Made by a program: the position numbers and the translations under genes | UHGV virus genome: UHGV-1371021 | DNA: 48,593 nucleotides | Reading direction: 5' to 3' (one strand) | Source of the DNA: a virus | Notes under the pieces: generated by a model | The model's database searches: none | Seen by the model: only the letters and a program-made list of their open reading frames with translations | What the model was told of the DNA's origin: nothing | In this document: positions 5,119-48,593 of the stretch, one piece after another | How the letters are laid out: the number at the start of each line of letters is the position of its first letter | Numbering within the stretch: position 1 is the stretch's first letter

Positions 5119-5334
5119 ATGAGTAATAAAAATCCGAGTTTCAGCGCATCGATGAAAAGCAAAAGTGGTGATGACATCATGATTTCAGCCAAGTTTAACC
5201 GTGTAGAGATGGAGGCTGAGAATGACTTCATGTTTATGACAACGGAACAGGCAATCGAACTTGCAGGAATTCTTGTATCAGCTGCCGAAGTAGCAAATGA
5301 GCAGTTAGGGTTAATGCAGCAACAGAAAAACTAA
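5119..5334 (+). CDS. hypothetical early protein (71 aa)
   Basis: ORF with a GAGGG RBS. First gene after the promoter. Confidence 0.55.
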   Translation: MSNKNPSFSASMKSKSGDDIMISAKFNRVEMEAENDFMFMTTEQAIELAGILVSAAEVANEQLGLMQQQKN

Positions 5335-5348
5335 ATGAGGAATCAGCG

Positions 5349-5495
5349 ATGAAAAGCAAAGACCGCGAAGAATTTGAAGATGCACAAGCCATGGCACGCA
5401 TTGCAGTTAACCGCGCAAACAACAGCATCCCAGCAGAAGCATTCTGGAACGCAGCAATGCAGGCTTTAATCTCAGCGTATGGGTTAAGCAAATGA
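5349..5495 (+). CDS. hypothetical small protein (48 aa)
   Basis: ATG with a GAGGA RBS. Below the track cutoff. Confidence 0.4.
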   Translation: MKSKDREEFEDAQAMARIAVNRANNSIPAEAFWNAAMQALISAYGLSK

Positions 5496-5587
5496 CAGGA
5501 GCAGCATTCGAGCTTATCGCCAGTCTGGTTATCGTGGCATTCATCATTATCGCAGTGGCAGTTTCTAAATCAGGTTATAAGGAGTAA
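5492..5587 (+). CDS. small hydrophobic peptide (31 aa, single TM)
   Basis: ATGA overlap with the upstream stop. LIASLVIVAFIIIAVAV. Confidence 0.3.
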   Translation: MTGAAFELIASLVIVAFIIIAVAVSKSGYKE

Positions 5588-5590
5588 TAA

Positions 5591-5773
5591 ATGGCAAAGA
5601 CTATCTATCGTCGCGAGAAGCTGGAACAAGAACTCGGTCACGTTGGCGCGCAAAACTTTATGAGTAAGCAGGCACGCAATGCAATGGAATCTATCCGCGT
5701 AAATCGCGTTGTGCGCGTGTTTAATGGTAAAGGTAAACGCAGAGTAATGGATGAGCTGATTATCGTATTCTGA
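5591..5773 (+). CDS. hypothetical basic protein (60 aa)
   Basis: ORF track entry. AAGGAG RBS. Confidence 0.5.
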   Translation: MAKTIYRREKLEQELGHVGAQNFMSKQARNAMESIRVNRVVRVFNGKGKRRVMDELIIVF

Positions 5774-5809
5774 CATCGATTCAGTGCTATTATTTTTAAT
5801 GGTGATGAT

Positions 5810-6043
5810 ATGGCAAAAGTAAAAACATACGAGTTCTGGTTTGCTCAGAACAAAATGTATGCGAGCAAGACAATCAAGCGAGCGCACTGGTGGAATAAGT
5901 GGTTAATCATGTCTGGCTGCATCGTGCTGGCAAAGTGCAAATTCAAAGCGATTGACATCACAGATGAGGATGCGCTCAAAATCGCAAAGATTGAGTTTGA
6001 AGAAGATGGCTATTACGAAGAAATTATGGGGGTTAGGGTATGA
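5810..6043 (+). CDS. hypothetical protein (77 aa)
   Basis: ORF track entry. Coupled to the next gene (ATGA). Confidence 0.5.
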   Translation: MAKVKTYEFWFAQNKMYASKTIKRAHWWNKWLIMSGCIVLAKCKFKAIDITDEDALKIAKIEFEEDGYYEEIMGVRV

Positions 6044-8889: not shown

Positions 8890-9333
8890 ATGGCAAATCC
8901 AAACCCAAAACACAAATTTTCATCTACAAATCAGCCGCCACCCAGAGGAAAAAGCTACAGAGCAGTTCTCCTTGAGGCATTACGTGCTGCAAACAGCCCG
9001 ATGAATGAAGTTGAATTCGTTACCTATTACATCAACCGCGCGATGACGTGCGATGACGCTCAGGCTACAGGGATGCTGCGTGAAATATTCCTGCGCCTCA
9101 ACCCGATTCCGAAACCTGTTGCTCCACCGATTGAATTCGACTTCCCGGCAGATGGAAATCCCGTCGAAAAGATGGACGCTATCATCAAAGGCGTATCAAC
9201 TGGCGCTGTTCCTGCTGATATCGGCAAGATGATGGCTGACATTATCAAGTCTGGGCTGGATATTCAGGAAGTCACTGAACTGGCGCAGCGCCTTGAGCGA
9301 CTGGAGAAATTACTGGAGCAGCAGAATGGATGA
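8890..9333 (+). CDS. putative terminase small subunit
   Basis: Basic N-terminus (MANPNPKHK...). Immediately upstream of the large terminase. Start chosen at ATG 8890. The track ORF begins at 8758 inside the terminator. Confidence 0.5.
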   Translation: MANPNPKHKFSSTNQPPPRGKSYRAVLLEALRAANSPMNEVEFVTYYINRAMTCDDAQATGMLREIFLRLNPIPKPVAPPIEFDFPADGNPVEKMDAIIKGVSTGAVPADIGKMMADIIKSGLDIQEVTELAQRLERLEKLLEQQNG

Positions 9334-9478
9334 TGAAGCAAATAAATATAAATCAAAATGTGATGAGGTGCTATTGCCACGCAACAGCAGTAGTCGCGGC
9401 GTTACATTTGATAAAGCAATGACGGATGAAGAGGTGATGGATGTTTTGCAGGGGTTAATCAATGGCTCGTAAACGCCT
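9326..9478 (+). CDS. hypothetical small protein (50 aa) between the terminase genes
   Basis: Overlaps both neighbouring genes. Acidic. Confidence 0.35.
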
Positions 9479-10883
9479 ATCAGCCCTGGCAATAGAAAAG
9501 CTGGAGGCGCAGGTTGATGATGTGCTGACTGAAGTTGCTGAGTCAGCCATTTTCGGCATCTGTGATATGCAGAAGAGCGTCGTTAAGCGCCTCAGAATGA
9601 CCGCTACAGGCGTGGAGGATGTTACCCATGCAACCACGCAGGCAGACCATTTAATCCCCGCAAAACTGGAGAGGCTGCTTTATCCGAAGCCATGGAAGGT
9701 TGTATATGGCGGCCGTGGTTCGGCAAAGACTCGCACGGTGTCGACAATCCTTACTGAGTCGGCAAGATTCAAATCTGAACGTATCGGGTGCTTCCGCGAG
9801 ATTCAGCAATCAATTGAAGACTCCAGCTATCAGGAACTGGTGGATGAAATTGATCGCAAAGGAGAATCAAAAGAATATCGTTGTATTGATGGCAAGATTA
9901 CCCACAAGAAGACTAAATCAAAGTTCCGTTTCCGTGGCCTTTATCGAAACGTGACTGGCGTTAAGGGTTTCGCTGGCATCACGAAGGCATGGATTGAGGA
10001 AGCTGAAAACGTCAGTCAGGCATCGTGGGATATCCTTGAACCTACCGTGCGCAACCCCGGTGCTGAGATATGGGTGACATTCAACCCCAACAAAGAAACC
10101 GATGCCACATGGACGCGATGGGTTGCCCCGTGGCACAACAAAATGGTCAACGGAATTTACGAGGATGATGAAATACTCATCATTGAGTGTAACTGGACCG
10201 ATAACCCATGGATGACAGAGGAGTTAATCCGCTCAAAAGATAAAATGAAGCGCGTCGACTTCGATCGCTATATGTGGATATGGGAAGGAAAATTTAACAA
10301 ACGTAGCGACGAGCAAGTTTTCGGCGGCAAATGGCGTATTGATAACTTCGAGGTCAAATCTGAATGGCATGGGCCATATTTCGGGATGGACTTCGGGTTT
10401 TCCACTGATCCCACCGCAATGGTTGAAGTTTACATCGAAGAATTACCAGGTGGACGGCGCAACATTTATATTAATCGCGAATATGGCAAGGTTGGGCTTG
10501 AGATTACTGATACGCCAGCCGCGATGGAGCAATCATTCCCGATGGCTAAGCGCGCGCGATGGTATGCAGACTGCGCTCGACCTGAAACTATCAGCCACAT
10601 CAAGCGTTCTGGATTCGATATTCACCCATGCACAAAATGGCCGGGAAGCGTTGAGGATGGCGTTACGTGGCTGCGTGGGTGCGATAGTATCATCATTCAC
10701 GAGCGGTGCAAGGAAATGCAGAATGAGGCGGCAATGTACAGCTACAAAGTCGATAAGCTGACAGGGAATGTGCTGACTGATATTGTTGATGCATATAACC
10801 ATTACTGGGATGCGGTTCGTTACGCACTTAATGACCACATCGTTCAGCGCGGTAGCGGTATGCTAATCCGACGCAGGCGATAA
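9462..10883 (+). CDS. terL: terminase large subunit
   Basis: Walker A VYGGRGSAKT. N-terminal ATPase followed by a C-terminal nuclease-like region. 473 aa. Confidence 0.9.
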   Translation: MARKRLSALAIEKLEAQVDDVLTEVAESAIFGICDMQKSVVKRLRMTATGVEDVTHATTQADHLIPAKLERLLYPKPWKVVYGGRGSAKTRTVSTILTESARFKSERIGCFREIQQSIEDSSYQELVDEIDRKGESKEYRCIDGKITHKKTKSKFRFRGLYRNVTGVKGFAGITKAWIEEAENVSQASWDILEPTVRNPGAEIWVTFNPNKETDATWTRWVAPWHNKMVNGIYEDDEILIIECNWTDNPWMTEELIRSKDKMKRVDFDRYMWIWEGKFNKRSDEQVFGGKWRIDNFEVKSEWHGPYFGMDFGFSTDPTAMVEVYIEELPGGRRNIYINREYGKVGLEITDTPAAMEQSFPMAKRARWYADCARPETISHIKRSGFDIHPCTKWPGSVEDGVTWLRGCDSIIIHERCKEMQNEAAMYSYKVDKLTGNVLTDIVDAYNHYWDAVRYALNDHIVQRGSGMLIRRRR

Positions 10884-16284: not shown

Positions 16285-16506
16285 TTATCTGGCAAGAATC
16301 CACACATGCTTCAGTGCGGAGATAAACCTGCCAACCCTTGTTTTCCCTTTCAAATTGACCAGGTACATATTTGAAACTGAAGATTTCGCTCCATCACATA
16401 TCATTGTTATTGCGGTTTTATTTCCATCTTTGAGCCTTGTGAATACCATCTCGCCCTGCCCGGTAAGACTTAGCGTATTACTTTTTTTGTTAAGTTTTAT
16501 CTCCAT
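16285..16506 (-). CDS. hypothetical protein (73 aa), first gene of the leftward operon
   Basis: Track ORF starts at 16527. I place the start at ATG 16506, 6 nt after GAGGTG within the conserved leader GAGGTGATGAAGATG. Confidence 0.5.
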   Translation of the reverse strand: MEIKLNKKSNTLSLTGQGEMVFTRLKDGNKTAITMICDGAKSSVSNMYLVNLKGKTRVGRFISALKHVWILAR

Positions 16507-16611
16507 CTTCATCACCTCATTCGTCATTTGATGTAGATACTATGCACCACCTCTCAATCTACGTCAATAGCCATTGTGATAGAATTAATCATTATTTGAA
16601 CAGGAGGCAGA

Positions 16612-24170: not shown

Positions 24171-25241
24171 ATGGAAAAGATTATTTTTACCAAAGATTTG
24201 GTAGCCAACTCCGCAGTAGTGGCTGACCAGTGGAAACATCTCACCATCGACCGTAAAGTGTTCTGCAACGCAGAAGCTGAACTGGCGAAAACTTACGGTG
24301 TTAACGCCACCGCACTGGTAACAAAAGATTACTGGCGCGACGTGGATAATGTTACCACCCGTGTTTTCCGCAACGAAGCTGGTCAGGATATGATGGCTGA
24401 CCTGATGGGTATCGCGGCAAACATCAATATCGGTAAGACTGTGGCAATCAGCCGCATTGCTTCCGATGCTGGTAAGGTCGTCCGCACTCTGTCTGGTCAG
24501 GAGCCGGAAGATTTGGATAAAACTCGCTACGATTACACTGGCGATGTGATTCCAATCTTCAAAACTGGCTACAGCCGCGAATGGCGCGAACTGCTGGGCA
24601 TGCAGTCTGAAGGCTTCGACCCACTGCTGGACGATCAGGCCAACGTCACCTTTAACCTGCGTTCTGACATGGCGCAGTATCTGCTGACCGGCGACCAGAC
24701 TCTGAACGTGAACGGCGTTTACACTGGTTACGGTATCACCAACCACCCGAACACCATTCAGGTTAACCTGAATGCTTCCGGCGGCCTGAATATCGACCTG
24801 CAAACCGCAACGCCAGATGAAATCGTGACCTTCTTCAATCAGGATTTCCAGGCTATTCTGGATGCGCAGAACGTATTTGAGCAGGTGACTCTATGGGTTT
24901 CCCCGGCAGTGCGTCGTAGCTTCATGCGTCCGTATTCTGATGCAGCAGGTTTCAAAGGTGGCACTGTTGAACAGTACATCACGCAGTTTGGCAATGGTCG
25001 CATCGGCAAGATTGGCACCAACTTCCTGCTGACTGGCAACCATTTCGTTGGCTACGTTCGCAACGACATGTACATCCGTCCGCGTGTTGCTCAGCCTGTT
25101 TCCACCTATGCGGCAGCCCGTGACAACCCGCACGATAACTTTAACTTTATGGTGTGGTCAGCTTTCGGTTTGCAAATCCGTAAGGATTTCACTGGTAAGT
25201 CCAAAGTGTTCAACGGCTACGGAACGCAAACTCCGCTGTAA
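24171..25241 (+). CDS. major capsid protein
   Basis: 356-aa ORF after the scaffold and decoration genes, followed by a strong terminator. Protein-like composition. Confidence 0.7.
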   Translation: MEKIIFTKDLVANSAVVADQWKHLTIDRKVFCNAEAELAKTYGVNATALVTKDYWRDVDNVTTRVFRNEAGQDMMADLMGIAANINIGKTVAISRIASDAGKVVRTLSGQEPEDLDKTRYDYTGDVIPIFKTGYSREWRELLGMQSEGFDPLLDDQANVTFNLRSDMAQYLLTGDQTLNVNGVYTGYGITNHPNTIQVNLNASGGLNIDLQTATPDEIVTFFNQDFQAILDAQNVFEQVTLWVSPAVRRSFMRPYSDAAGFKGGTVEQYITQFGNGRIGKIGTNFLLTGNHFVGYVRNDMYIRPRVAQPVSTYAAARDNPHDNFNFMVWSAFGLQIRKDFTGKSKVFNGYGTQTPL

Positions 25242-25867: not shown

Positions 25868-25894
25868 AAACCCGCATCATGCGGGTTTTTTATT
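25868..25894. terminator. Rho-independent terminator (aaacccgcATCATgcgggttttttatt)
   Basis: Stem-loop plus a 6-T run. Confidence 0.8.
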
Positions 25895-25905
25895 GGGGGG
25901 TTTCT

Positions 25906-26754
25906 ATGGCTGTAAGATACGACATATTCACCACGCGGGATGACGGTGAGGTGATGCTTGATGAGTTGATGTCCGCTGACTGGACTGCGCTACAGGTTAA
26001 CGTGATGCCGCTTAATTCATCTGGCGCATACACGCCACTGGTTAGCGGAACCGTGTCCGTGAAGGTGTCGCCATTTGAATCTGGCAACTACTGGATTGAC
26101 GTCAACAATAATAATTATTACGGCGTGGCATTGCGCCTGAAGATAATCAAAACTGAATTGCCAGCAGCGGTAAGTTCGCTGCGCGTTTCTGTCTGGCGCG
26201 CTGGTGTCTCTCCGCAATCGGTAGTAAACCTTCAACCTGACGTGGCGCTAAGCGACATCACCACGCAGTCATATATTGAGCGCGCCAACAAGCAAGGCAA
26301 GCTGTTCACTGCGTCGCGTAGAGTAACTGATGTTGCTGGCGGCTCAAACCTTGATAGCATATTTATCACCGGAGCAAAACAGGTGATATTTAACCAGCGC
26401 ATCATTGGTTACACAGGGAAGGGTGTTATTGCATCAATCTATCGCGGCGCGGTTGCCGCTGGCGGTGCGGCTGCAGAGATTAACAACCCAAACGACATAA
26501 CGCCGCAGGCAGCTACGGCGCAGTTACTTACTGGCGCTACCGTGACAAACATCGGGCAGATGACGGTAGCGGCAACATACAGTGAGGGCAACGCATCGAA
26601 TCAGGGGCAGGGTAACTCGCAGGCGAAACTCGGCGAGCAGATTATCATGGCACCAAATACGACGTATTTGCTTCGCATAACATCACTGGATACTGCGGCG
26701 CAGAATATCAATGCGTATGTGTCATGGTTTGAGGATGATACTTATCTGGCATGA
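25906..26754 (+). CDS. putative virion structural protein (282 aa, Ala/Gly/Thr/Ser-rich)
   Basis: Start at ATG 25906 with a GGGGGG RBS. The track start at 25879 lies inside the terminator. Composition is typical of fibre or decoration proteins. Confidence 0.5.
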   Translation: MAVRYDIFTTRDDGEVMLDELMSADWTALQVNVMPLNSSGAYTPLVSGTVSVKVSPFESGNYWIDVNNNNYYGVALRLKIIKTELPAAVSSLRVSVWRAGVSPQSVVNLQPDVALSDITTQSYIERANKQGKLFTASRRVTDVAGGSNLDSIFITGAKQVIFNQRIIGYTGKGVIASIYRGAVAAGGAAAEINNPNDITPQAATAQLLTGATVTNIGQMTVAATYSEGNASNQGQGNSQAKLGEQIIMAPNTTYLLRITSLDTAAQNINAYVSWFEDDTYLA

Positions 26755-26755
26755 T

Positions 26756-26790
26756 AAAAGAAAAGCCCCGCGAGGGGCTTTGTTTATTGT
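26756..26790. terminator. bidirectional Rho-independent terminator (aaagccccGCGAggggcttt)
   Basis: GC stem with an A-run and a T-run. Lies between convergent operons. Confidence 0.8.
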
Positions 26791-26969
26791 TTATCCGGGT
26801 CGGCGTAGAAATTCAGTAGCTTTATGAAATCTCTTTTCCCTGAATGATTAAGATAAAATCCAGCAATTTCACTAAACGCTTCGTTTGCCGCTCTTACACT
26901 GCAACCCATATTTAAAGCATCACGCGCTGCAATGGCTGCACTTTTTGTTTTTTCTTTAATGCTCATCAC
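26784..26969 (-). CDS. hypothetical protein (61 aa)
   Basis: Last gene of the leftward 8-gene operon. Its stop is inside the terminator. Confidence 0.45.
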   Translation of the reverse strand: MMSIKEKTKSAAIAARDALNMGCSVRAANEAFSEIAGFYLNHSGKRDFIKLLNFYADPDKQ

Positions 26970-27505
26970 TAAATCCTCATTGGCATAACAATAACTTTTG
27001 CTGTCTCGCCAGTTGGAGCGCTGACACTGGCAACGGCGGCGTTAGTATTGCCATTCAGGTCAAAGCGCACGCCTTCCCATTTCGGATTAAACAATTTCGC
27101 CAGCTTTTCAGCATCTGCCAGGTATTTTGCATTGAAGCCGATTTTCTCGGCTGGCGCAGTCTGTTTTGGAATGACGCGATCAATATCCGGGAATCTCCCG
27201 TCAATAACTTCGCAGATACCAGCACCGACCATTACATCAAGTTCATCGTGATAAGTGACCATTTTTGTTTTAGTGTCCAGCACTGCATATGAGTAGCGCT
27301 TTAACGGTGACTTGCTGACTGACACAATCACGTTATCAGTGAGTTTATTTTCATGCTTACTGGCAATGAATGCGCGATGACCGTCAGTAGCTGCAACGCG
27401 ACCATCCGGCATAAAACAGATGCCATTGAGGTAGTAACGCACATCATTCTTGGCCTGAAACATCAATGAGCCTTCGAGTAATAACTTGCTGATTTTTAAT
27501 TTCAT
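26969..27505 (-). CDS. truncated DnaN-like DNA polymerase III beta sliding-clamp homologue (domains II-III only, 178 aa)
   Basis: [9 protein letters not shown]..F...G..[11 protein letters not shown] matches E. coli DnaN [47 protein letters not shown] matches [27 protein letters not shown] matches EIGFNVSYVLDV. C-terminal VIVMPMRI matches VVMPMRL. It lacks clamp domain I. Start at ATG 27505 (TGATG overlap with the upstream stop). The track start at 27547 is in frame but overlaps the 57-aa ORF. Confidence 0.7.
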   Translation of the reverse strand: [178 protein letters not shown]

Positions 27506-27678
27506 CACTTTACCTTTATCATGTGTTGTTTTGCGACTTTCAGGCACTCATCAAAAATACTACCTTTCTTCGCGCTCTGATGACGCCTGTAATGCTCAAT
27601 CGCTGCATCAATTGCGCGCTGGTCGATATCTGGTAGCTTGGCGCTGAGTTGTTTTTCTATGAATTGTTCTGGGGTCAT
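27505..27678 (-). CDS. hypothetical protein (57 aa)
   Basis: ATGA- and TGATG-coupled between its neighbours. Below the track cutoff. Confidence 0.4.
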   Translation of the reverse strand: MTPEQFIEKQLSAKLPDIDQRAIDAAIEHYRRHQSAKKGSIFDECLKVAKQHMIKVK

Positions 27679-27899
27679 TTGTAGTTATCCTTCAGTTCAG
27701 CAATCATGTCATCTATGCACCTATCAGATTCAACATAATCACCACTTGCATTTTCAATGCAGGAAATCATTTCTTCAACACTAAAGTCAGATATGAGCAT
27801 AAATTCAATAATGCAATACATAGCAATTCTGAACTCATCATCTGAGTTGCATTGATTAAGTATATCTTTGATTGCGCACGTTACTTGTTGTTGATTCAT
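27675..27899 (-). CDS. small highly acidic protein (74 aa), possible DNA mimic
   Basis: D/E-rich sequence (SDDEF..EEMISCIENASGDYVESDRCIDDMIAELKD). ATGA-coupled. Confidence 0.5.
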   Translation of the reverse strand: MNQQQVTCAIKDILNQCNSDDEFRIAMYCIIEFMLISDFSVEEMISCIENASGDYVESDRCIDDMIAELKDNYK

Positions 27900-28708
27900 T
27901 TCATCTGCTCCAAAATCGCCATAACTTCCTGAATATCCTTCGCCTGAATCTGGATGAACTCTTCATCTTCTGGCATCACAAAGCCAGCCATGAATCGCAC
28001 ATGGTCAGCATCTTTCAGCAACTCAACCAGACGGTCAACTGGCTTAACCTTTTTCGCTTTGAGCACTTTAGCGGTAACTTTATCCTTGCCTTGCGCCTTT
28101 GCCTCAGTAACAGCTTCGTCGATAACCTTGACGGCATCATCACCATGCTCGCGGGTCACGGCAACAGCATTGGCATAGCTAATCTGCCCTAAGTTAATGC
28201 GCTCCTTGATTTCTGGTGGCACATCACCCAATGACAGATGCATTTGCACATCGGAAACTGAGCGACCAACTTTCTTAGCGATTTCCTCGTTAGTCCAGCC
28301 AAACCCTTTCAGACGCACATATGCTTTTGCACGTTCAAATGGGTCAAGCTGTTTACCCTGGCTTGATGACACCATGAATGCGATTTTGTCAGCTTCGTCG
28401 CCAGTGAAATCTTTGCACTCAATACGCGCGATAGGTGCGCCGCGTTCAATGGCCTTCAATGCGCCAAGATAGCGATGCTGACCATCAAGAATGCGGATTC
28501 CCTTCTCGTCCGGAATAACTGTTAATGCTGGCAGTGGCTGACCTGACTCCCAGCACTGTGCGAAATACTCCACATGCTGCTCATCTGCTTCACGGATGTT
28601 ATATCCCGGCTCCAGATAGATTTGCTCAACTGGCACGAGATAGGTTTTGTTAACAGCGATGCCGTTACGCGTTTCTTTGTCTGAATATATTTTGCTGAGT
28701 GTTTTCAT
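27896..28708 (-). CDS. ParB-like nuclease-domain protein with HTH (270 aa)
   Basis: ParB N-terminal motif IRILDGQHRYLGALKA, plus an HTH segment (GWTNEEIAKKVGRSVSDVQ). Confidence 0.75.
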   Translation of the reverse strand: MKTLSKIYSDKETRNGIAVNKTYLVPVEQIYLEPGYNIREADEQHVEYFAQCWESGQPLPALTVIPDEKGIRILDGQHRYLGALKAIERGAPIARIECKDFTGDEADKIAFMVSSSQGKQLDPFERAKAYVRLKGFGWTNEEIAKKVGRSVSDVQMHLSLGDVPPEIKERINLGQISYANAVAVTREHGDDAVKVIDEAVTEAKAQGKDKVTAKVLKAKKVKPVDRLVELLKDADHVRFMAGFVMPEDEEFIQIQAKDIQEVMAILEQMK

Positions 28709-29076
28709 TTTTTCTTTCCTAATGCTTTCTTGATCGCTTTGTTAGCCAGATTTAACGGATGGTCATCATGACAGTCATCGGAAGATACAGCGCAAACATC
28801 ATCAACGTAATCGCGAAGCTGGCGAAGTGCTTCGAGTAATTCTGGCGCTGCGGCTACTAACTTTGCATTCGACAAATGCTCAATGCGTGATACATCCCTA
28901 TGAGCGCCTTCATCGCTCCAGTGTTCAAACCCAGCCTTCTCCCAACCGGGGATAATTGCTATAGAATTAATCACCCTAATAATCCCAAAACCATTATCAT
29001 CAACTACATCAGTATAAACTTCATGGCGCTTAACGCACTCCCACTCACCTTTCGTACCCTTGAATTCATCTTTCAT
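28705..29076 (-). CDS. hypothetical protein (~123 aa), paralogue of 47350..47688
   Basis: Shares M.(D/N)EFKGTKG(E/P)W, AAAPELL.A...L and C-terminal AIKKALGK with the other copy. Confidence 0.55.
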   Translation of the reverse strand: MKDEFKGTKGEWECVKRHEVYTDVVDDNGFGIIRVINSIAIIPGWEKAGFEHWSDEGAHRDVSRIEHLSNAKLVAAAPELLEALRQLRDYVDDVCAVSSDDCHDDHPLNLANKAIKKALGKKK

Positions 29077-29275
29077 TTGATTCACCACTTTCTTCTAATA
29101 AAAGTTCATAGTTTGCAATGTATGCATTGGCCAGATGATACATTTGCTCTGCGGCGCAGCATTCTGGGCCGCTGAAGTCATCAATAGAGCCAGCATTGCT
29201 GAGTGCATCAACACAATTACGAAAATCAATCACGGTATTGCGGAACATACAGTAGTACATGTTTGCCATGATCAC
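29066..29275 (-). CDS. hypothetical protein (69 aa, Cys-rich)
   Basis: ORF track entry. Coupled to its neighbours. Confidence 0.45.
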   Translation of the reverse strand: MIMANMYYCMFRNTVIDFRNCVDALSNAGSIDDFSGPECCAAEQMYHLANAYIANYELLLEESGESNER

Positions 29276-29895
29276 TCCTCATCACCAGAATTAGCAATAT
29301 CGTAAAACTGACCGTAGGTTATCTGCTTAAAATCGTCAGGTATTGTTACCTGCCCATGACCTTCATCTTTTGTATTTGGCACGGCAAAAATCAGGCAATC
29401 ATCCTTTTGCGGGTGTTTGCCGCCATAAGTAGACAGCATTGCAAAACAAAGTCCGCGACCTGATTGCTCACAAATGCCCGTGCGCGCAATTCCATAATGA
29501 TTAACTATGTAGTCTTTCCATTCTGGCAATAACTTTAATTGCTCATTTGCTTCTCGCATCACTGCGTCCAGCTTTTTGTTGTATTCACGACCATCCTTTG
29601 TGTTTCCTTTCCCACGAGCCACAATTACACGCTGACCTTCCCAGAAGTCTTCGCGCTTTATTGTCACAGGGCACGGAAATTCAAACTGCTTACTCCACAC
29701 AAAGCTCTCAAGTAAGCCACCACCGACTGCTCCCCAGCTACGTGTCGTGGTGAAAGCGATAGCGCCAACCTTTTTCATTGCATCACCGAGAATTTCATTG
29801 CGGCGCTTTTGGATGTCATCATATGAGTCAATAACTTTCTTAACATCAGCACCTTCAACCATGTAATAATCATAATGTTTTGCGTTGCTGCTCAT
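29272..29895 (-). CDS. hypothetical protein (~207 aa), first gene of the leftward operon
   Basis: Track ORF starts at 29913. I place the start at ATG 29895, 6 nt after GAGGTG in the conserved leader GAGGTGATGAAGATG. Confidence 0.55.
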   Translation of the reverse strand: MSSNAKHYDYYMVEGADVKKVIDSYDDIQKRRNEILGDAMKKVGAIAFTTTRSWGAVGGGLLESFVWSKQFEFPCPVTIKREDFWEGQRVIVARGKGNTKDGREYNKKLDAVMREANEQLKLLPEWKDYIVNHYGIARTGICEQSGRGLCFAMLSTYGGKHPQKDDCLIFAVPNTKDEGHGQVTIPDDFKQITYGQFYDIANSGDEE

Positions 29896-29935
29896 CTTCA
29901 TCACCTCTAGCATTTATTGTTGTTTCTACGTCATT

Positions 29936-29964
29936 ACTATAAACACCCCATCAATCTACGTCAA
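29936..29964 (-). promoter_or_regulatory. leftward promoter TTGACG-N17-TATAGT driving the 29895..26784 operon
   Basis: Near-consensus hexamers with 17-bp spacing about 35 nt upstream of ATG 29895. Embedded in ATCTACGTCA motifs. Confidence 0.5.
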
Positions 29965-30011: not shown

Positions 30012-30131
30012 ATGGGTTCAACAAACGGTCCGTCTCGTTCACGCGCTACTGGCAACACAAAAACTGGCGGCAAAACTGGCGCAGTTAAGCCAAACGGCTC
30101 TACCCGCTCACCATCGCGCGGTAAAAAATAA
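30012..30131 (+). CDS. small basic protein (39 aa, Gly/Ser/Thr/Lys-rich)
   Basis: AGGAG RBS 8 nt before ATG. TAATG-coupled to the next gene. Confidence 0.4.
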   Translation: MGSTNGPSRSRATGNTKTGGKTGAVKPNGSTRSPSRGKK

Positions 30132-30571
30132 TGTTCGGCGCAGACGTTGCCATCATGATCATGTATGTGCTGGGTTTTGCCTGCACGGGCATGGTAGCGT
30201 TTCTGGTGTTCATTCCGGCAATGGTGATGTCTGTGTATCTTGGATGGGTGCTTGTTGATTCTTTTCCCGCCGAATATCTGTATTACCTTGCGCAGTCTAT
30301 GGTCTGGTTGTTTCCAGCTATTGCACTGCGCAAAAGTACAAAGATGGCGCTCTGCGTGCTGACGATGAGCCTTTACGAATGGCTGGTTGCGATAGAGTCA
30401 TTCGTATGGGAATTTATCACGCCTGTAGAAACGCCGCTTCATGCGCAGTACGCATTTATTATTATCGGCATCCATCTGTTCATCCTTTCCATCACTTTTA
30501 AATGGGGCGGCGAAATTGGACATTATTCTTGGCGTGGTTGCCATCGTTTTTTCGCTGATTCAAATCTATAA
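30131..30571 (+). CDS. integral membrane protein (146 aa, ~4 TM)
   Basis: Four long hydrophobic segments. Confidence 0.6.
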   Translation: MFGADVAIMIMYVLGFACTGMVAFLVFIPAMVMSVYLGWVLVDSFPAEYLYYLAQSMVWLFPAIALRKSTKMALCVLTMSLYEWLVAIESFVWEFITPVETPLHAQYAFIIIGIHLFILSITFKWGGEIGHYSWRGCHRFFADSNL

Positions 30572-30603
30572 GTGCTGGAAACATATCATCAGCGAGACTC
30601 GCA

Positions 30604-30888
30604 ATGAACGAAACACTAAGGCAGGCCGCGGAGCAAGTTATAAGCGGAACGACAGGACAGGTGATTGATAAGGCTGGGTATGCCTCTATTGGTACTGGTA
30701 TCGGCCTGAAAGTTGCAGAACAAACACCTGTCACGCAGTCTTATTTTGAGGCCATGATTCCACAATCATTAACTGAATGGGCGGCAGTAGCGTCAATCCT
30801 TGGTGCGCTGTCACTGGTAATAAAAAACCTGTTTGAGATGTGGTGGAAAGTACGGGAGTCAAAGAGAAATGACAGCACCAACACCTGA
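30604..30888 (+). CDS. hypothetical protein with a C-terminal TM segment (94 aa)
   Basis: WAAVASILGALSLVIKNLF followed by a basic tail. Confidence 0.5.
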   Translation: MNETLRQAAEQVISGTTGQVIDKAGYASIGTGIGLKVAEQTPVTQSYFEAMIPQSLTEWAAVASILGALSLVIKNLFEMWWKVRESKRNDSTNT

Positions 30889-44575: not shown

Positions 44576-45058
44576 TTAGAACGGAATATCGTCATCAAAA
44601 TCCATCGGAGGCTCATTTCCTCCTTGTGGGCTTTGTTGTGTTGGTGGCTGTTGTTGTCGTTGCGTTTGTTTCCCTGATTGCTGGCGTTGTTGCTTACCAG
44701 AATCTTCGCGTTTACCTCCAAGCATCTGCATAACACCGCCCATCTGCGGAATGACAATCTCCGTTGTATATCGGTCTACGCCGTTGCTGTCAGTCCATTT
44801 ACGAGTGCGAAGCTGACCTTCGATATAAACCTGAGAACCTTTTCGAAGGTATTCTCCTGCAACTTCTGCAAGTTTCCCGAAGATGACTACGCGATGCCAT
44901 TCAGTCTGCTCTTTCTTTTCTCCTGTTTGTTTGTCTTTCCACTGCTCAGATGTTGCAACGGAAAGGTTGGCAATCGCAGAGCCTGATGCAGAATATTTAA
45001 CTTCCGGGTCGTTACCGAGAGTTCCGACAATAATTACTTTATTTACGCCGCGTGCCAT
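44576..45058 (-). CDS. ssb: single-stranded DNA-binding protein
   Basis: OB-fold N-terminus [19 protein letters not shown]..., Gln/Gly-rich linker, acidic C-terminal tail DFDDDIPF. Confidence 0.9.
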
Positions 45059-45061
45059 TTA

Positions 45062-46102
45062 TTAAAATCCTTCAATTGGAGTTGGTTTATGTTCGGTTTT
45101 TGCTTCTTCCTGCTGTTCTGGCTGATGATGTTTAGGTTTAGCCAGTTTTGCAGGGTCGAAATTATCCTGCGGAGTTATTACCACAGGAGATAATTGCTCA
45201 TCGTTTATGAAAGACTCAATGCGATCGTATTCAGCAGCCGAAGCAGCCAGAGAAGGCCAGATTGCGCGAATCTTATCTTTCAGGTTGTCAGGTATTGATT
45301 TTGCTTCTTCCTTCAAGCCTTCCATGCCTTTTGCGGCGGAAAGCTGAAGTCGTGATCGCCATGACTCAAACTCTTCATCAACTTTGACGCCAGAATCTAC
45401 CCATTTAATTAAACCTCGTCCATGTGCTTCACCGATATATCCGTGGTGCTGGCTATCACGACCTGATTCGAAAAAGATAGGGCGCAATTCTTCTGGCAGT
45501 TTCGTGAAGTCCTGAACCTTACCGTTATCATACATCATCATGCTAACCGTCATTTCGAACATGAAATCTTTTTCGCATACCGGATGCAGCCCAAGCGGCA
45601 TTGGGTCTTTCGGGTTACTGAAGTCAGTTTTGTTTCGCGCGCGCAGACAGACAATTATATGCATGTTGCTCTGCAATAGCGCACTCATGAACTTTTTGTG
45701 CTCGGCTTTGGCGCGCTTCCAGTCTGCCATCTTCTTGCCATTAAGTAGAGGCTGGTCAGCGATATCTGAACAACCGCCTTCGCCTTCCCATTCATGAGAG
45801 CCAGAGTCTATTACCAGCACCTTAACTCCAGCCTTCTGAAACTCTTCGATAGCCTGACGATAGCGAGCAGGGCTGAATGGCGCATACAGGTCTGCATGCA
45901 GGAAATTACCATCAAGGATATTTGAATACAGTCGACCACGCCCATTTTCAGTGTCGAGAAATCCAATCTCTGATGGAGAGTCAACCATTCCACGCGCCAG
46001 TTTAAGTGCGCTATATGTTTTCCCGCTACCAGACTGACCGGAGATACCAATTACCACACGAGAACCTGAGCGCTCTGCGGGTTTGATGTTAAGGATGCTC
46101 AT
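45062..46102 (-). CDS. RecA-fold P-loop ATPase, Sak4-like recombination protein (346 aa)
   Basis: Walker A GISGQSGSGKT. Located between the exonuclease and SSB genes. Confidence 0.55.
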   Translation of the reverse strand: MSILNIKPAERSGSRVVIGISGQSGSGKTYSALKLARGMVDSPSEIGFLDTENGRGRLYSNILDGNFLHADLYAPFSPARYRQAIEEFQKAGVKVLVIDSGSHEWEGEGGCSDIADQPLLNGKKMADWKRAKAEHKKFMSALLQSNMHIIVCLRARNKTDFSNPKDPMPLGLHPVCEKDFMFEMTVSMMMYDNGKVQDFTKLPEELRPIFFESGRDSQHHGYIGEAHGRGLIKWVDSGVKVDEEFESWRSRLQLSAAKGMEGLKEEAKSIPDNLKDKIRAIWPSLAASAAEYDRIESFINDEQLSPVVITPQDNFDPAKLAKPKHHQPEQQEEAKTEHKPTPIEGF

Positions 46103-46374
46103 TTTTTATTCCTCTCAGATAACATAGCGTCAGCATACTCATAATTCATCAACGCCCAGGTACCATAAAAAACCTTACGCGTTAAATCGTCAGCCATATC
46201 AGGATTGTCATCACCATAAACCTTTTTAACCTGTTCGAAGGTGATTGGTGATTTTGATGCAAAAAAATCACGTAATGACATACCTTCCTGCCCTAATTTT
46301 TCAAATCCTTTGTCATACCCATTGGCCTGATAATCTTCTCTTGGGAATGCTGGCCCACCTGTTTCTTTGCTCAT
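46099..46374 (-). CDS. hypothetical protein (91 aa)
   Basis: ATGA-coupled ORF. Confidence 0.5.
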   Translation of the reverse strand: MSKETGGPAFPREDYQANGYDKGFEKLGQEGMSLRDFFASKSPITFEQVKKVYGDDNPDMADDLTRKVFYGTWALMNYEYADAMLSERNKK

Positions 46375-46390
46375 TTCATCACCTCATTTA

Positions 46391-47347
46391 CTATAAATTA
46401 AACTGCTTCTTGAACCATTCCGGCGTTTCCATTTCGATTACCGGATTACCCATTGAGTAGCCAGGCCATGAATTGGCTTTTTTGCACGCCTTATAGATTT
46501 CCATTGCGCTGCGCAACTGAATTCGGCCAATGTGTAATTGCTCATCAGTCAGGCGAACCAGAGCCGGTATAAACGGTGCTTTCTTCTCCTGAATCAGCAG
46601 GTTTACCGAACGTGGCGGCTTCCCATATGCGGCTACAAACATGTCGTGCTGCATTGCCATTTTCATGAAGTAACCGAGTCTCGCAGCATGGCGAAAAAAT
46701 TCATCAGGTTTTGCGCTGACAGTTGTTTTGTAGTCGATGATATCACCGCCTTTTGTCAGGCAGTCAAATCGAACCTTGGATGATTCTCCATTCAACTCAC
46801 CGAGAATTGATACCTCAGCATGAGCGCCAGCAAGAAGGCTGCTGTAATAGCTGTTTGCGTGGATTACAGCGCGCATTTGCTGAATGGCATCATAATCATT
46901 ACCTTCCAGCATCTGTTTACCAGTCGCTGCTTTTTCAGCTTCCTCACGGATAACATCATAAATCTTTACTTGCTCGCCAGTTGCCTGGATTATTTTAATC
47001 ACCTCATCTTTAGTCTTTCCTGACAGCCCTTTGATGCCGCGCTCTTTCGCCCATGAGTTCATGTCTGAAGTCGTTACCAGCACAGTGCGATTACCATCCT
47101 TGTCTTTTGGAAAATCGTCCACAACTGGCATGCGCGCATATTCAGCTTCGAATCTCTCAGGCTCAAGCAGAGCTGTATGGCTTCCGGTTCCGAATACAAG
47201 AGCCTTTGATTGCTCATCTTCTTCGTCTTTGTAGCGCCAGGCTGCTGGGCATCTGTCGTAAATGTTCCACAGACCAGAGCCGTTGATGTGCTCAGTGTCT
47301 GCGTGGTACTGGTCATTACTGAGTTCGTTGTTTAGGTAGACTTTCAT
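46391..47347 (-). CDS. PD-(D/E)XK exonuclease (lambda Exo/RecE/YqaJ-type)
   Basis: RFDCLTKGGDIIDYKTT is a D...(D/E)xK nuclease motif. Recombination gene neighbourhood. Confidence 0.6.
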   Translation of the reverse strand: MKVYLNNELSNDQYHADTEHINGSGLWNIYDRCPAAWRYKDEEDEQSKALVFGTGSHTALLEPERFEAEYARMPVVDDFPKDKDGNRTVLVTTSDMNSWAKERGIKGLSGKTKDEVIKIIQATGEQVKIYDVIREEAEKAATGKQMLEGNDYDAIQQMRAVIHANSYYSSLLAGAHAEVSILGELNGESSKVRFDCLTKGGDIIDYKTTVSAKPDEFFRHAARLGYFMKMAMQHDMFVAAYGKPPRSVNLLIQEKKAPFIPALVRLTDEQLHIGRIQLRSAMEIYKACKKANSWPGYSMGNPVIEMETPEWFKKQFNL

Positions 47348-47349
47348 TG

Positions 47350-47688
47350 TTATTTTCCTAATGCTTTTTTGATTGCCGACTCTGCTTTTTCTTTTCCGAT
47401 TTCAACATCCATCAATGTTCCATCACGCAGTGCCATTAACAACCACTGGCAAGCATCAAGTAATTCAGGTGCTGCTGCCATTAAATTAAAGTCATGCTCA
47501 ACGCTACAATCCATAGCCCAATAAGTGCCATTAAATTTTGCGTTTTTATTTGAGTATGCAATGTTTCTATCATCATCAAAGTGACAACCAGGAGTTTCAT
47601 CGCACCTGCATTTTGGGTAAATTGCCGCACAACCGCCACGAATATCAGCAAACCACGGTCCTTTTGTACCTTTAAATTCATTTTCCAT
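47350..47688 (-). CDS. hypothetical Cys-rich protein (112 aa), paralogue of 28705..29076
   Basis: MENEFKGTKGPW...AAAPELLDA...AIKKALGK. Start at ATG 47688, 6 nt after GAGGTG in the conserved leader. The track start at 47697 is in frame. Confidence 0.55.
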   Translation of the reverse strand: MENEFKGTKGPWFADIRGGCAAIYPKCRCDETPGCHFDDDRNIAYSNKNAKFNGTYWAMDCSVEHDFNLMAAAPELLDACQWLLMALRDGTLMDVEIGKEKAESAIKKALGK

Positions 47689-47718
47689 CTTCATCACCTC
47701 ACTATTTATCGTTAAATG

Positions 47719-47747: not shown

Positions 47748-48168
47748 GTCCAAAGTAGAATAAAGTCGCTTTTTTTATTTGCTCAAGCCCTCCAGCAACC
47801 GCAGCAAATGCGCCGGATTCCGCGCTTCTATTGAGAAATGGTATCTGCCCAGGTTGCCACTCGCTAAGGTTTGTATCATGCCGCTTCAGCTCAATAGTGG
47901 CCTTGTGCCAGTTAATTCCTGGTGTAAGTATCACCACGTCAGACACGCCAGAAAGGACTCCCTTCCTTCGTCTGCTTTCAAGGTATTGCGGAGTTGGCTT
48001 CCTTGTCTCGTTTGGTGTGTGAAACCAAAGAACATCCGGTAACTTATGATTCATCCACATCCAGTAACCTATCAGATCAGTATCCTCATGTGGACAATCT
48101 CCGTGATACTCATCATCAAAGATAAATACCGCATCACTCAATTCATGCTGCTTGAATTTTTTCTTCAT
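47737..48168 (-). CDS. VRR-NUC domain nuclease (143 aa)
   Basis: KGVLSGVSDVVILTPG..WHKATIELKRHD...S..Q fits the VRR-NUC (PD-(D/E)XK) pattern. Confidence 0.7.
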   Translation of the reverse strand: MKKKFKQHELSDAVFIFDDEYHGDCPHEDTDLIGYWMWMNHKLPDVLWFHTPNETRKPTPQYLESRRRKGVLSGVSDVVILTPGINWHKATIELKRHDTNLSEWQPGQIPFLNRSAESGAFAAVAGGLEQIKKATLFYFGLDE

Positions 48169-48593
48169 TCACTTCACCCAAAAAATCCTTCCTGTGAATA
48201 ATGTCACGGCCTTTATCATTAATTCGATGCGTGATACGTTTTGGCGCACGAATCAACGCAGCGTACATCATGAACGTTTTCGCGTTTTGGCAATCCATCA
48301 TCTTTTTCATCATGGATTTATCTGCCAGGTGCGGAAGTAGCGCTTTCATTTTAAACATATCCCGCAGATGCTTTGGCTTTCCACCAAACGGATAGAACAC
48401 TTCATTGGCCCATCCCTTTTTGCCATTGGATTTCATGCAGAAATAGCGATAAAGAATGCCATCGCTATCTTTGGTTAATTCAACCTTGAAATCTTCAACA
48501 TCAGTCCATTCATTGTCGGTATATGCTCGCTCATTGAGTGCTGCGTTTGGGTCACGCAGAACATGATCGCAATGACGACAATAACGAGCTGTC
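48143..48593 (-). CDS. C-terminal 150 codons of the SF2 helicase, continuous in frame with 1..1503 across the window junction
   Basis: Reverse strand is open from 48593 down to the stop at 48143..48145. The codon ccg is formed by positions 2, 1 and 48593. Additional CxxC/CxHC zinc-ribbon motifs (RYCRHCDH). Same frame as the track ORF at 48143..48436. Confidence 0.75.
   Translation of the reverse strand, partial: TARYCRHCDHVLRDPNAALNERAYTDNEWTDVEDFKVELTKDSDGILYRYFCMKSNGKKGWANEVFYPFGGKPKHLRDMFKMKALLPHLADKSMMKKMMDCQNAKTFMMYAALIRAPKRITHRINDKGRDIIHRKDFLGEVNEEKIQAA

Follow-up and report, generated by a model that had tools for sequence, protein, structure and literature searches.

The virus genome UHGV-1371021, analysed here over its full length of 48,593 nucleotides (the window), carries between its head and tail modules a leftward operon of eight genes, g1 to g8, the seventh of which encodes a short relative of the bacterial sliding clamp DnaN (beta) that we call the mini-clamp. 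The window (48.6 kb) is a complete, circularly permuted phage genome, because a DEAD/DEAH (DEAD-box) helicase gene of ~650 amino acids (aa) wraps across both of its ends (1-1524 and 48147-48593, minus strand). The nearest relatives are Deseoctovirus C1/DS8 and other "Skatevirus and relatives" siphoviruses of Salmonella, E. coli and Klebsiella, and the source is a Skatevirus-like lytic siphovirus. The window and its close relatives encode a primase, helicases, a single-stranded DNA-binding protein (SSB), exonuclease VIII and an annealing protein; no DNA polymerase gene was found in the window or in those relatives.

A check of open reading frames (ORFs) found all eight minus-strand genes, running from 29895 to 26784, with the head genes (major capsid, 24171-25241) on one side and the head-tail joining and tail genes on the other. 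The frequencies given here and below refer to 80 IMG/VR loci with a gene for a relative of the ParB-like protein g4, each scored for all eight proteins, or to the 64 of these loci in which both flanking genes are present. The genes are as follows.

29272..29895, minus strand: g1, 207 aa, EaC/DUF5420-like accessory protein, in 11/80 loci
29066..29269, minus strand: g2, 67 aa, acidic (isoelectric point, pI, 4.1), 4 Cys, phrog_8760, in 15/80 loci
28705..29076, minus strand: g3, 123 aa, phrog_1273, in 21/80 loci, its family in 36/64 cassettes
27896..28708, minus strand: g4, 270 aa, ParB-like DNA-binding protein, near-core gene of the phage group
27675..27899, minus strand: g5, 74 aa, pI 4.05, net charge -11.5, phrog_14587, in 9/80 loci
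27505..27678, minus strand: g6, 57 aa, basic, phrog_4439, in 71/80 loci
26969..27505, minus strand: g7, 178 aa, mini beta-clamp, in 54/80 loci
26784..26966, minus strand: g8, 60 aa, rare, in 4/80 loci

The junctions g3/g4, g4/g5 and g5/g6 are ATGA overlaps and g6/g7 is GTGATG; g2 and g3 overlap by 11 nucleotides (nt), and spacers of 2 nt separate g1 from g2 and g7 from g8. The tight coupling, the extent of the operon and its place between head and tail modules are thus as a preliminary description of the region had given them, and its very acidic 74-aa protein is indeed so. Two of its protein lengths needed correction (69 aa for g2 and 61 aa for g8), the others standing, and its term Cys-rich fits g2 only weakly, since the 4 Cys include no CxxC pairs. 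Proteins identical in sequence to the chosen-start products occur in public collections (Caudoviricetes proteins DAU67815-20 from a metagenome-assembled genome), and the gene starts are therefore corroborated by independent gene callers.

The protein that distinguishes this operon is g7. The claim that it is a truncated DnaN homologue held up: a phmmer search against PDB sequences returned the E. coli and Enterobacter beta subunits with E-values of 1e-13 to 2e-14 (1e-13 to E. coli beta), the alignment spanning residues 136-292 of E. coli beta plus the C-terminus (VIVMPMRI versus VVMPMRL). The family models score g7 below their cut-offs (TIGR00663, 39.9 bits versus 137.65; the Pfam clamp models likewise). 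When 1.84 billion representative proteins were searched, ~140 of the 150 best 50%-identity representatives were 170-220 aa long and matched end to end, and the first full-length DnaN appeared at an E-value of 2.5e-13. An AlphaFold2 model built from 95 diverse homologues reached a predicted local distance difference test score (pLDDT) of 96.7 and a predicted template-modelling score of 0.91; with only 21 close homologues the pLDDT was 44 and the model unusable. The top Foldseek matches of the model in the PDB were all bacterial beta clamps, aligned with a large internal gap, and the fold recurs in many viral models of 163-266 aa in BFVD (query template-modelling score, TMq, up to 0.89). Moreover, the family profile identifies the third structural unit as the C-terminal half of domain III (34.7 bits) and not the N-terminal half (10.7 bits). 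By model and profile, then, g7 is predicted to comprise 1.5 domains of DnaN, namely domain II and, from domain III, the C-terminal half.

Such an architecture bears directly on ring formation. The ring interface of beta is formed by I78/F106 of domain I with I272/L273 of domain III (PMC11139829). A beta protomer has three clamp domains in 366 aa; the 178 aa of g7 hold neither domain I nor the half of domain III that bears I272/L273, and with them the head-to-tail dimer interface is missing. Furthermore, the model of g7 passes from strand 59-63 to strand 73-77 without a helix, where domain II of beta has its second channel helix, so that g7 has one channel helix fewer. Having lost domain I, the I272/L273 half-domain and this helix, g7 would be unable to form a head-to-tail ring. 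A single-sequence alignment had suggested that g7 kept the I272/L273 interface and might cap host beta monomers; this candidate was rejected, the family profile favouring the other half of the domain. The annotation of phage C1, a close relative, lists no clamp loader gene.

PHROG 3007 and many RefSeq phage records, hundreds of entries in the two collections together, label g7 homologues "RusA-like Holliday junction resolvase". There was no RusA family among the Pfam and NCBIfam matches of g7, and its fold and sequence matches were to beta clamps only. The RusA label on this family is a propagated misannotation.

The second property of g7 concerns the site at which beta receives its partners. 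The residues of beta that contact clamp-binding motifs have been described (PMC3716654), and at these pocket positions conservation in the g7 family is 0.75, compared with 0.37 elsewhere in the protein (p 1e-8). Mean column identity in the family is only 20%, and the pocket residues are its most conserved positions. The 11 most conserved correspond to D150, R152, Y154, L155, T172, G174, H175, P242, Y323, M362 and P363 of beta, and R23, G42, H43, P106, M174 and P175 of g7 are at least 93% conserved and the same as in E. coli beta. Set against E. coli DnaN (2POL/1MMI), g7 is homologous and of the same fold in its domain II and its half of domain III, with R152, G174, H175, P242, R246, V247, M362, P363 and R365 identical or conservatively replaced. 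Judged from these alignments, g7 appears to retain the hydrophobic clamp-binding-motif pocket between domains II and III.

Shortened phage relatives of beta have been noted before. In 2011, five of twelve phage polIII-beta homologues were found to be shorter and were listed as 'second and third domains', their function being left open (Kazlauskas & Venclovas, PMC3201878), and in a 2016 survey the role of stand-alone PolIII-beta homologues in phages with neither a polymerase nor a clamp loader was an open question (PMC4889955). The mini-clamp resembles those proteins in being phage-encoded, shortened and unaccompanied by a clamp loader, in a phage that has no DNA polymerase of its own. It departs from the 2011 description in its 1.5 domains, in the size of its family (303 phage records, from many host genera) and in the selective conservation of its pocket. 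We found no functional or structural study of the short phage beta homologues in the literature.

The mini-clamp is found in a variety of genomic settings outside this phage group.

Dhillonvirus TheodorHerzl: lone antisense mini-clamp in the head module; own Pol I 25 kb away
Shewanella phage 1/41: lone antisense mini-clamp between head and tail-sheath genes
Hungariovirus C130_2: mini-clamp among methylases, near primase and helicase
Temperate Hafnia phage yong1: mini-clamp between cII and the replication initiator
A metagenomic contig: mini-clamp adjoining Phage_rep_O
Xanthomonas PhiXhv-5: mini-clamp between helicase and DNA polymerase
Burkholderia AH2 (L093): mini-clamp gp20 at 5294-5923 and ParB-like gp28 at 8896-9870, in one early operon, 3 kb apart

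AH2 is an unrelated phage of the Casjensviridae, in which seven small genes lie between gp20 and gp28; the notes of its record list BcepNazgul homologues for both. It was considered whether the mini-clamp occurs only in phages without a polymerase, and this was rejected because Dhillonvirus and PhiXhv-5 encode polymerases; whether a phage has its own polymerase does not determine whether it carries the mini-clamp. As 28% of the related genomes lack it, the mini-clamp is a dispensable accessory function. The preliminary description had proposed comparing the co-occurrence of the ParB-like and mini-clamp genes. They do occur together, in 54/80 loci, but each is also found without the other: the mini-clamp without any ParB in Dhillonvirus, Shewanella 1/41, Hungariovirus and the temperate Hafnia phage, and the ParB-like gene without a mini-clamp in Xanthomonas FoX1 and in 26/80 loci. 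Since the mini-clamp stands alone in unrelated phages, ParB is not its obligate partner.

The ParB-like protein itself, g4, consists of a ParB/Srx N-domain with the motif DGQHRY, a ParB-type helix-turn-helix (HTH) and a C-terminal region, the first two in the order seen in ParB, Spo0J, Noc and KorB. It scores above the Pfam cut-offs for PF17762 HTH_ParB (42 bits, cut-off 22.6) and PF08535 KorB (24.5 bits, cut-off 22.3), matches PHROG 1033 and aligns with T. thermophilus Spo0J (1vz0) at an E-value of 1e-13. It had been called a ParB-type nuclease/HTH protein; the HTH is sound, but nothing supports a nuclease. In the alignment with Spo0J, GERRYRAA lies opposite DGQHRYLGA of g4 and ENLQRE opposite SSSQGK, so that g4 lacks the canonical CTP-binding and hydrolysis motifs GERRxRA and ENLQR of the ParB family; its own motifs DG.HRY.GAL and SSQG are at least 95% conserved among 70 homologues of 43% to 94% identity. 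It also stays below the NCBIfam partition cut-offs (TIGR00180, 34.8 bits versus 58.45). No ParA-type Walker A motif (KGGxGK[ST]) is present in any frame of the window and no ParA is annotated in phage C1, which upholds the view that this is not a standard partition system; unlike the ParB family, g4 has no ParA- or KorA-like partner and is the gene of a lytic phage. Repeated palindromes that might serve as g4 targets were not found above shuffle expectation. Distant g4 homologues lie in early or replication-recombination regions of unrelated phages. Taken together, these comparisons place g4 among DNA-binding proteins of ParB fold but outside the ParABS partition systems; it may act on phage DNA as a KorB/Noc-style site-specific protein, regulatory or DNA-organising.

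The two outer boundaries of the operon are marked by the following signals.

29936..29964, minus strand: cassette promoter TTGACG-17-TATAGT, matching 10/12 sigma-70-type consensus positions
29955-29963, minus strand: TGAYGTAGA copy 1, overlapped by the -35 element of the cassette promoter
29925..29933, minus strand: TGAYGTAGA copy 2, TGACGTAGA, just downstream of the -10 element, a putative operator common to ~7 other operons
26762..26781, both strands: bidirectional intrinsic-terminator hairpin AAAGCCCCGCGAGGGGCTTT with T-runs on both strands, common to the cassette and the convergent 291-aa head-module gene
1526, 5061/5078, 11301/11318/11396, 16529/16558, 19907, 29925/29955, 35354 and 47721/47731: TGAYGTAGA copies in the window

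The consensus promoter and bidirectional terminator previously assigned to the cassette are therefore both in place, and the hairpin is kept in 43/64 related loci. The 9-mer TGAYGTAGA occurs 14 times in the window where 0.74 copies are expected, a count reached in 0/100 shuffles. Its copies are grouped, often in pairs, at ~8 sites, each 30-60 nt ahead of the gene that opens an operon; in a pair, copy 1 overlaps the TTGACG -35 element and copy 2 lies near the -10 element or +1. Upstream of the related cassettes the motif is present in 64/64 loci, with two copies in 59/64, and the full promoter layout is kept in 61/64 although the spacer sequence varies. The cassette is one of ~8 co-regulated operons in a phage-wide promoter class and, given that this layout is repeated and conserved, a unit of a phage-wide regulon that uses host RNA polymerase. 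TGAYGTAGA is a non-palindromic, promoter-associated repeat, and there is no evidence tying it to g4. Moreover, an identical leader and start region, GAGGTGATGAAGATG, is present in three operons (~16490-16510, 29895-29912 and ~47688-47705, all on the minus strand), among them the cassette and a recombination operon headed by a paralogue of g3. This common leader sets the start of g1 at 29895 and that of the g3 paralogue at MENEFKGTKG.

The contents of the operon vary widely between relatives. Although 170 phage records share parts of the region by megablast, none covers 80% of it. The preliminary description read the cassette as an insertion that interrupts the order of the morphogenesis genes; the slot is occupied in every relative examined, and the cassette is thus not a recent insertion. 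Over the 64 loci the slot measures 1.6-4.8 kb and holds at least 67 protein clusters, of which the recurrent ones are the ParB-like protein (64), g6 (51), g7 (49) and the g3 family (36). The five genes g1, g2, g3, g5 and g8, each present in 4-21 of the 80 loci, are interchangeable cargo, and the conserved co-occurrence and order expected of one multi-gene system were not found among these loci. Phage records at a minimum of 60% identity number 203 for the capsid protein, 192 for the ParB-like protein and 146 for the mini-clamp, by which the ParB-like gene is essentially core, the mini-clamp a frequent accessory and the others morons. The cargo of relatives includes DNA methylases and homing nucleases; between the ParB-like gene and g6 they carry a C5 cytosine methylase (80.7 bits), an N6/N4 methylase (weak match), an HNH endonuclease or an Endo VII-containing protein. 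The region is a fixed slot with changing contents, an accessory operon of the phage group and not one machine, contrary to the idea of an eight-gene module. That the combination matches no described system remains true, as we found no published analysis of this cassette in the literature. A close parallel is found in accessory (moron) regions such as the ea region of P22, which shares with it small, variable, non-essential-looking genes, a promoter and terminator of its own and the naming of g1 as EaC/DUF5420; the cassette differs in lying between head and tail modules and in being anchored by the conserved ParB-like gene and g6-g7.

Three observations concern the slot and its surroundings. 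In three loci (L036:3756-5105, L052 and L077) a 449-aa ORF with a C-terminal Endonuclease VII domain (84 bits) lies between the ParB-like gene and g6; as a C5 methylase occupies this place in other loci, the ORF may represent what is left of a methylase, fused to a homing endonuclease or invaded by one. Directly to the right of the cassette promoter, 30012-30888 (plus strand) holds three genes: a basic ORF of 39 aa, one for a multi-pass membrane protein or lipoprotein of 146 aa and one for a membrane protein of 94 aa. These genes are also non-structural, and the whole head-tail gap is therefore an accessory region with divergent transcription. On the other side, the 291-aa head-module gene that converges on the cassette terminator (25879-26754, plus strand) was found in only 34/80 related loci; since it too varies, the variable zone reaches beyond the leftward operon.

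The genes g1, g2, g3, g5, g6 and g8 gave nothing in searches of the PDB, PADLOC and NCBIfam, and g1, which carries the names EaC and DUF5420, had no Pfam match either. The sole match of g5 is phrog_14587 (E-value 1.2e-9), which bears the putative annotation 'anti-restriction protein'; g5 has no Pfam match. As previously noted, g3 has a paralogue at 47350 (47350-47697, minus strand; 34% identity, E-value 9e-7). This paralogue heads the recombination operon at 44576-47697 (minus strand), followed by exonuclease VIII, a 91-aa ORF, a Sak4-like ATPase and SSB, a position that suggests the g3 family is tied to DNA metabolism and is not random cargo. Where a mini-clamp is present, g6 usually lies directly upstream of it.

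From this anatomy we propose how the mini-clamp might act. Host RNA polymerase would transcribe the cassette leftward from one of ~8 look-alike phage promoters. The product of g7, which could not close a ring, keeps the docking pocket used by the alpha and delta subunits of DNA polymerase III (Pol III), Hda, MutS/L and translesion polymerases, and as a soluble pocket module it would compete with or re-route host proteins that carry clamp-binding motifs during infection. We put the probability that g7 is a non-ring, soluble copy of the beta docking site that binds host motif proteins at about 0.45-0.55. A more specific proposal, that the mini-clamp is a single-gene module serving as a decoy or adaptor copy of the pocket, which titrates or re-routes motif proteins or soaks up pocket-targeting toxins, is more tentative. 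Clamp-binding polypeptides of S. aureus phages exploit the host beta clamp, and so does MuC of phage Mu (PMC12867686); during infection they work at the hub of beta clamp and clamp-binding motifs, where g7 is proposed to act. In MuC and the S. aureus polypeptides the phage protein has the motif and the host clamp the pocket, whereas g7 would itself present a pocket.

Several points weigh against this proposal. No ligand of g7 was found: a search of the phage ORFs for a terminal clamp-binding motif returned a sole match in an implausible antisense ORF, and the candidate motif of g6 (KQLSAKL, compare QLSLPL of Hda) was rejected as not conserved, its Q being N in many homologues. The conservation of the pocket could in part be an inherited constraint of the fold, as the same residues are the most conserved in full-length DnaN, although the signal persists despite a mean column identity of 20%. 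A purely inhibitory role is awkward, because a phage dependent on the Pol III of its host would not be expected to shut it down wholesale, and several g7 homologues lie inside replication modules, which fits a positive role in the replisome. Expression of the operon is probably early, as judged from promoter type alone. As for g4, B. subtilis parS has no match in the window at up to 3 mismatches, though the true site of g4 may differ, and KorB OB, Noc NBS and P1 box sites gave nothing above chance as its targets.

The strongest competitor, though in our view unlikely, casts the mini-clamp as a processivity or tethering factor that works without a loader, like herpesvirus UL42: a basic surface would bind DNA directly and the pocket would hold a polymerase, either Pol III alpha of the host or one encoded by the phage, which would favour phage replication. 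The conserved pocket suits this too, as do the homologues in the replication modules of PhiXhv-5, Hafnia yong1, C130_2 and the Phage_rep_O contig. The g7 family is basic, with a median pI of 8.5 and 63% of members above 8, and the helix that survives has conserved lysines at K134, K137 and K142; direct DNA binding has been proposed for loader-less clamp homologues of high pI (Kazlauskas & Venclovas, PMC3201878). UL42 and UL44 share with g7 the clamp fold in a non-ring, loader-free form (PMC3201878) but differ from it in their PCNA lineage, in their two full domains and in a demonstrated DNA binding that for g7 is a possibility only. The charge does not discriminate, however, given that the equivalent fragment of E. 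coli beta has a pI of 9.2, and one of the channel helices is lost. Moreover, the gene stands alone and antisense in the structural modules of Dhillonvirus, where the polymerase gene is 25 kb off, and of Shewanella 1/41, and its absence from 28% of otherwise similar genomes argues that it is not a core part of the replisome.

It is less likely again that the whole slot is an anti-defence island in which each gene counters host immunity and the mini-clamp is a decoy for pocket-targeting toxins or effectors. The slot is hypervariable, as is typical of counter-defence hotspots, and its GC content is below that of the flanking DNA; relatives carry orphan C5 and N6/N4 methylases in it, and g5 belongs to a PHROG labelled anti-restriction and is strongly acidic, like DNA mimics. 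Against this, the ParB-like gene is near-universal in the group, unlike a typical counter-defence gene, there were no matches in PADLOC or to known anti-defence structures, and the label on g5 is a putative annotation. BASEL isolates of Skatevirus are, furthermore, reported to be markedly sensitive to restriction-modification and Old systems (PMC11990801). Interference with host replication, or anti-defence, is a reasonable guess for individual genes, and not for the cassette as a unit, on account of the conserved pocket of the mini-clamp and of the methylases and the 'anti-restriction'-labelled gene in the slot.

That the mini-clamp and the ParB-like protein cooperate to give host polymerase a loader-free landing pad on phage DNA seems to us very improbable. 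Also very improbable is a single integrated module of eight genes for takeover of the host nucleoid or replication, with the ParB-like protein and the mini-clamp acting together: tight coupling in one operon, the joint presence of the two genes in 54/80 loci and the early operon that they share in the unrelated AH2 would favour it, but five of the eight genes are sporadic, each of the two is found without the other in several phage groups, unrelated inserts (methylases, HNH genes) lie between them, and in AH2 they are seven genes apart.

Among these phages the cassette as such is nothing unusual; what is new is the architecture of the mini-clamp and the hypothesis of its mechanism. The TGAYGTAGA motif provides a handle on regulation in common, little-studied phages of Salmonella, E. 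coli and Klebsiella that are used in biocontrol. For the mini-clamp, the open question of the stand-alone PolIII-beta homologues becomes a concrete and testable hypothesis, in which the parts that encircle DNA have been lost and the parts that bind partners kept. If it is correct, phages manipulate a central hub of replication and repair by copying the docking site of that hub, and the mini-clamp would be a natural probe for a pocket that is a validated antibiotic target. As a decoy or adaptor, it would represent a previously unrecognised class of phage effector, spread across hundreds of unrelated phages.

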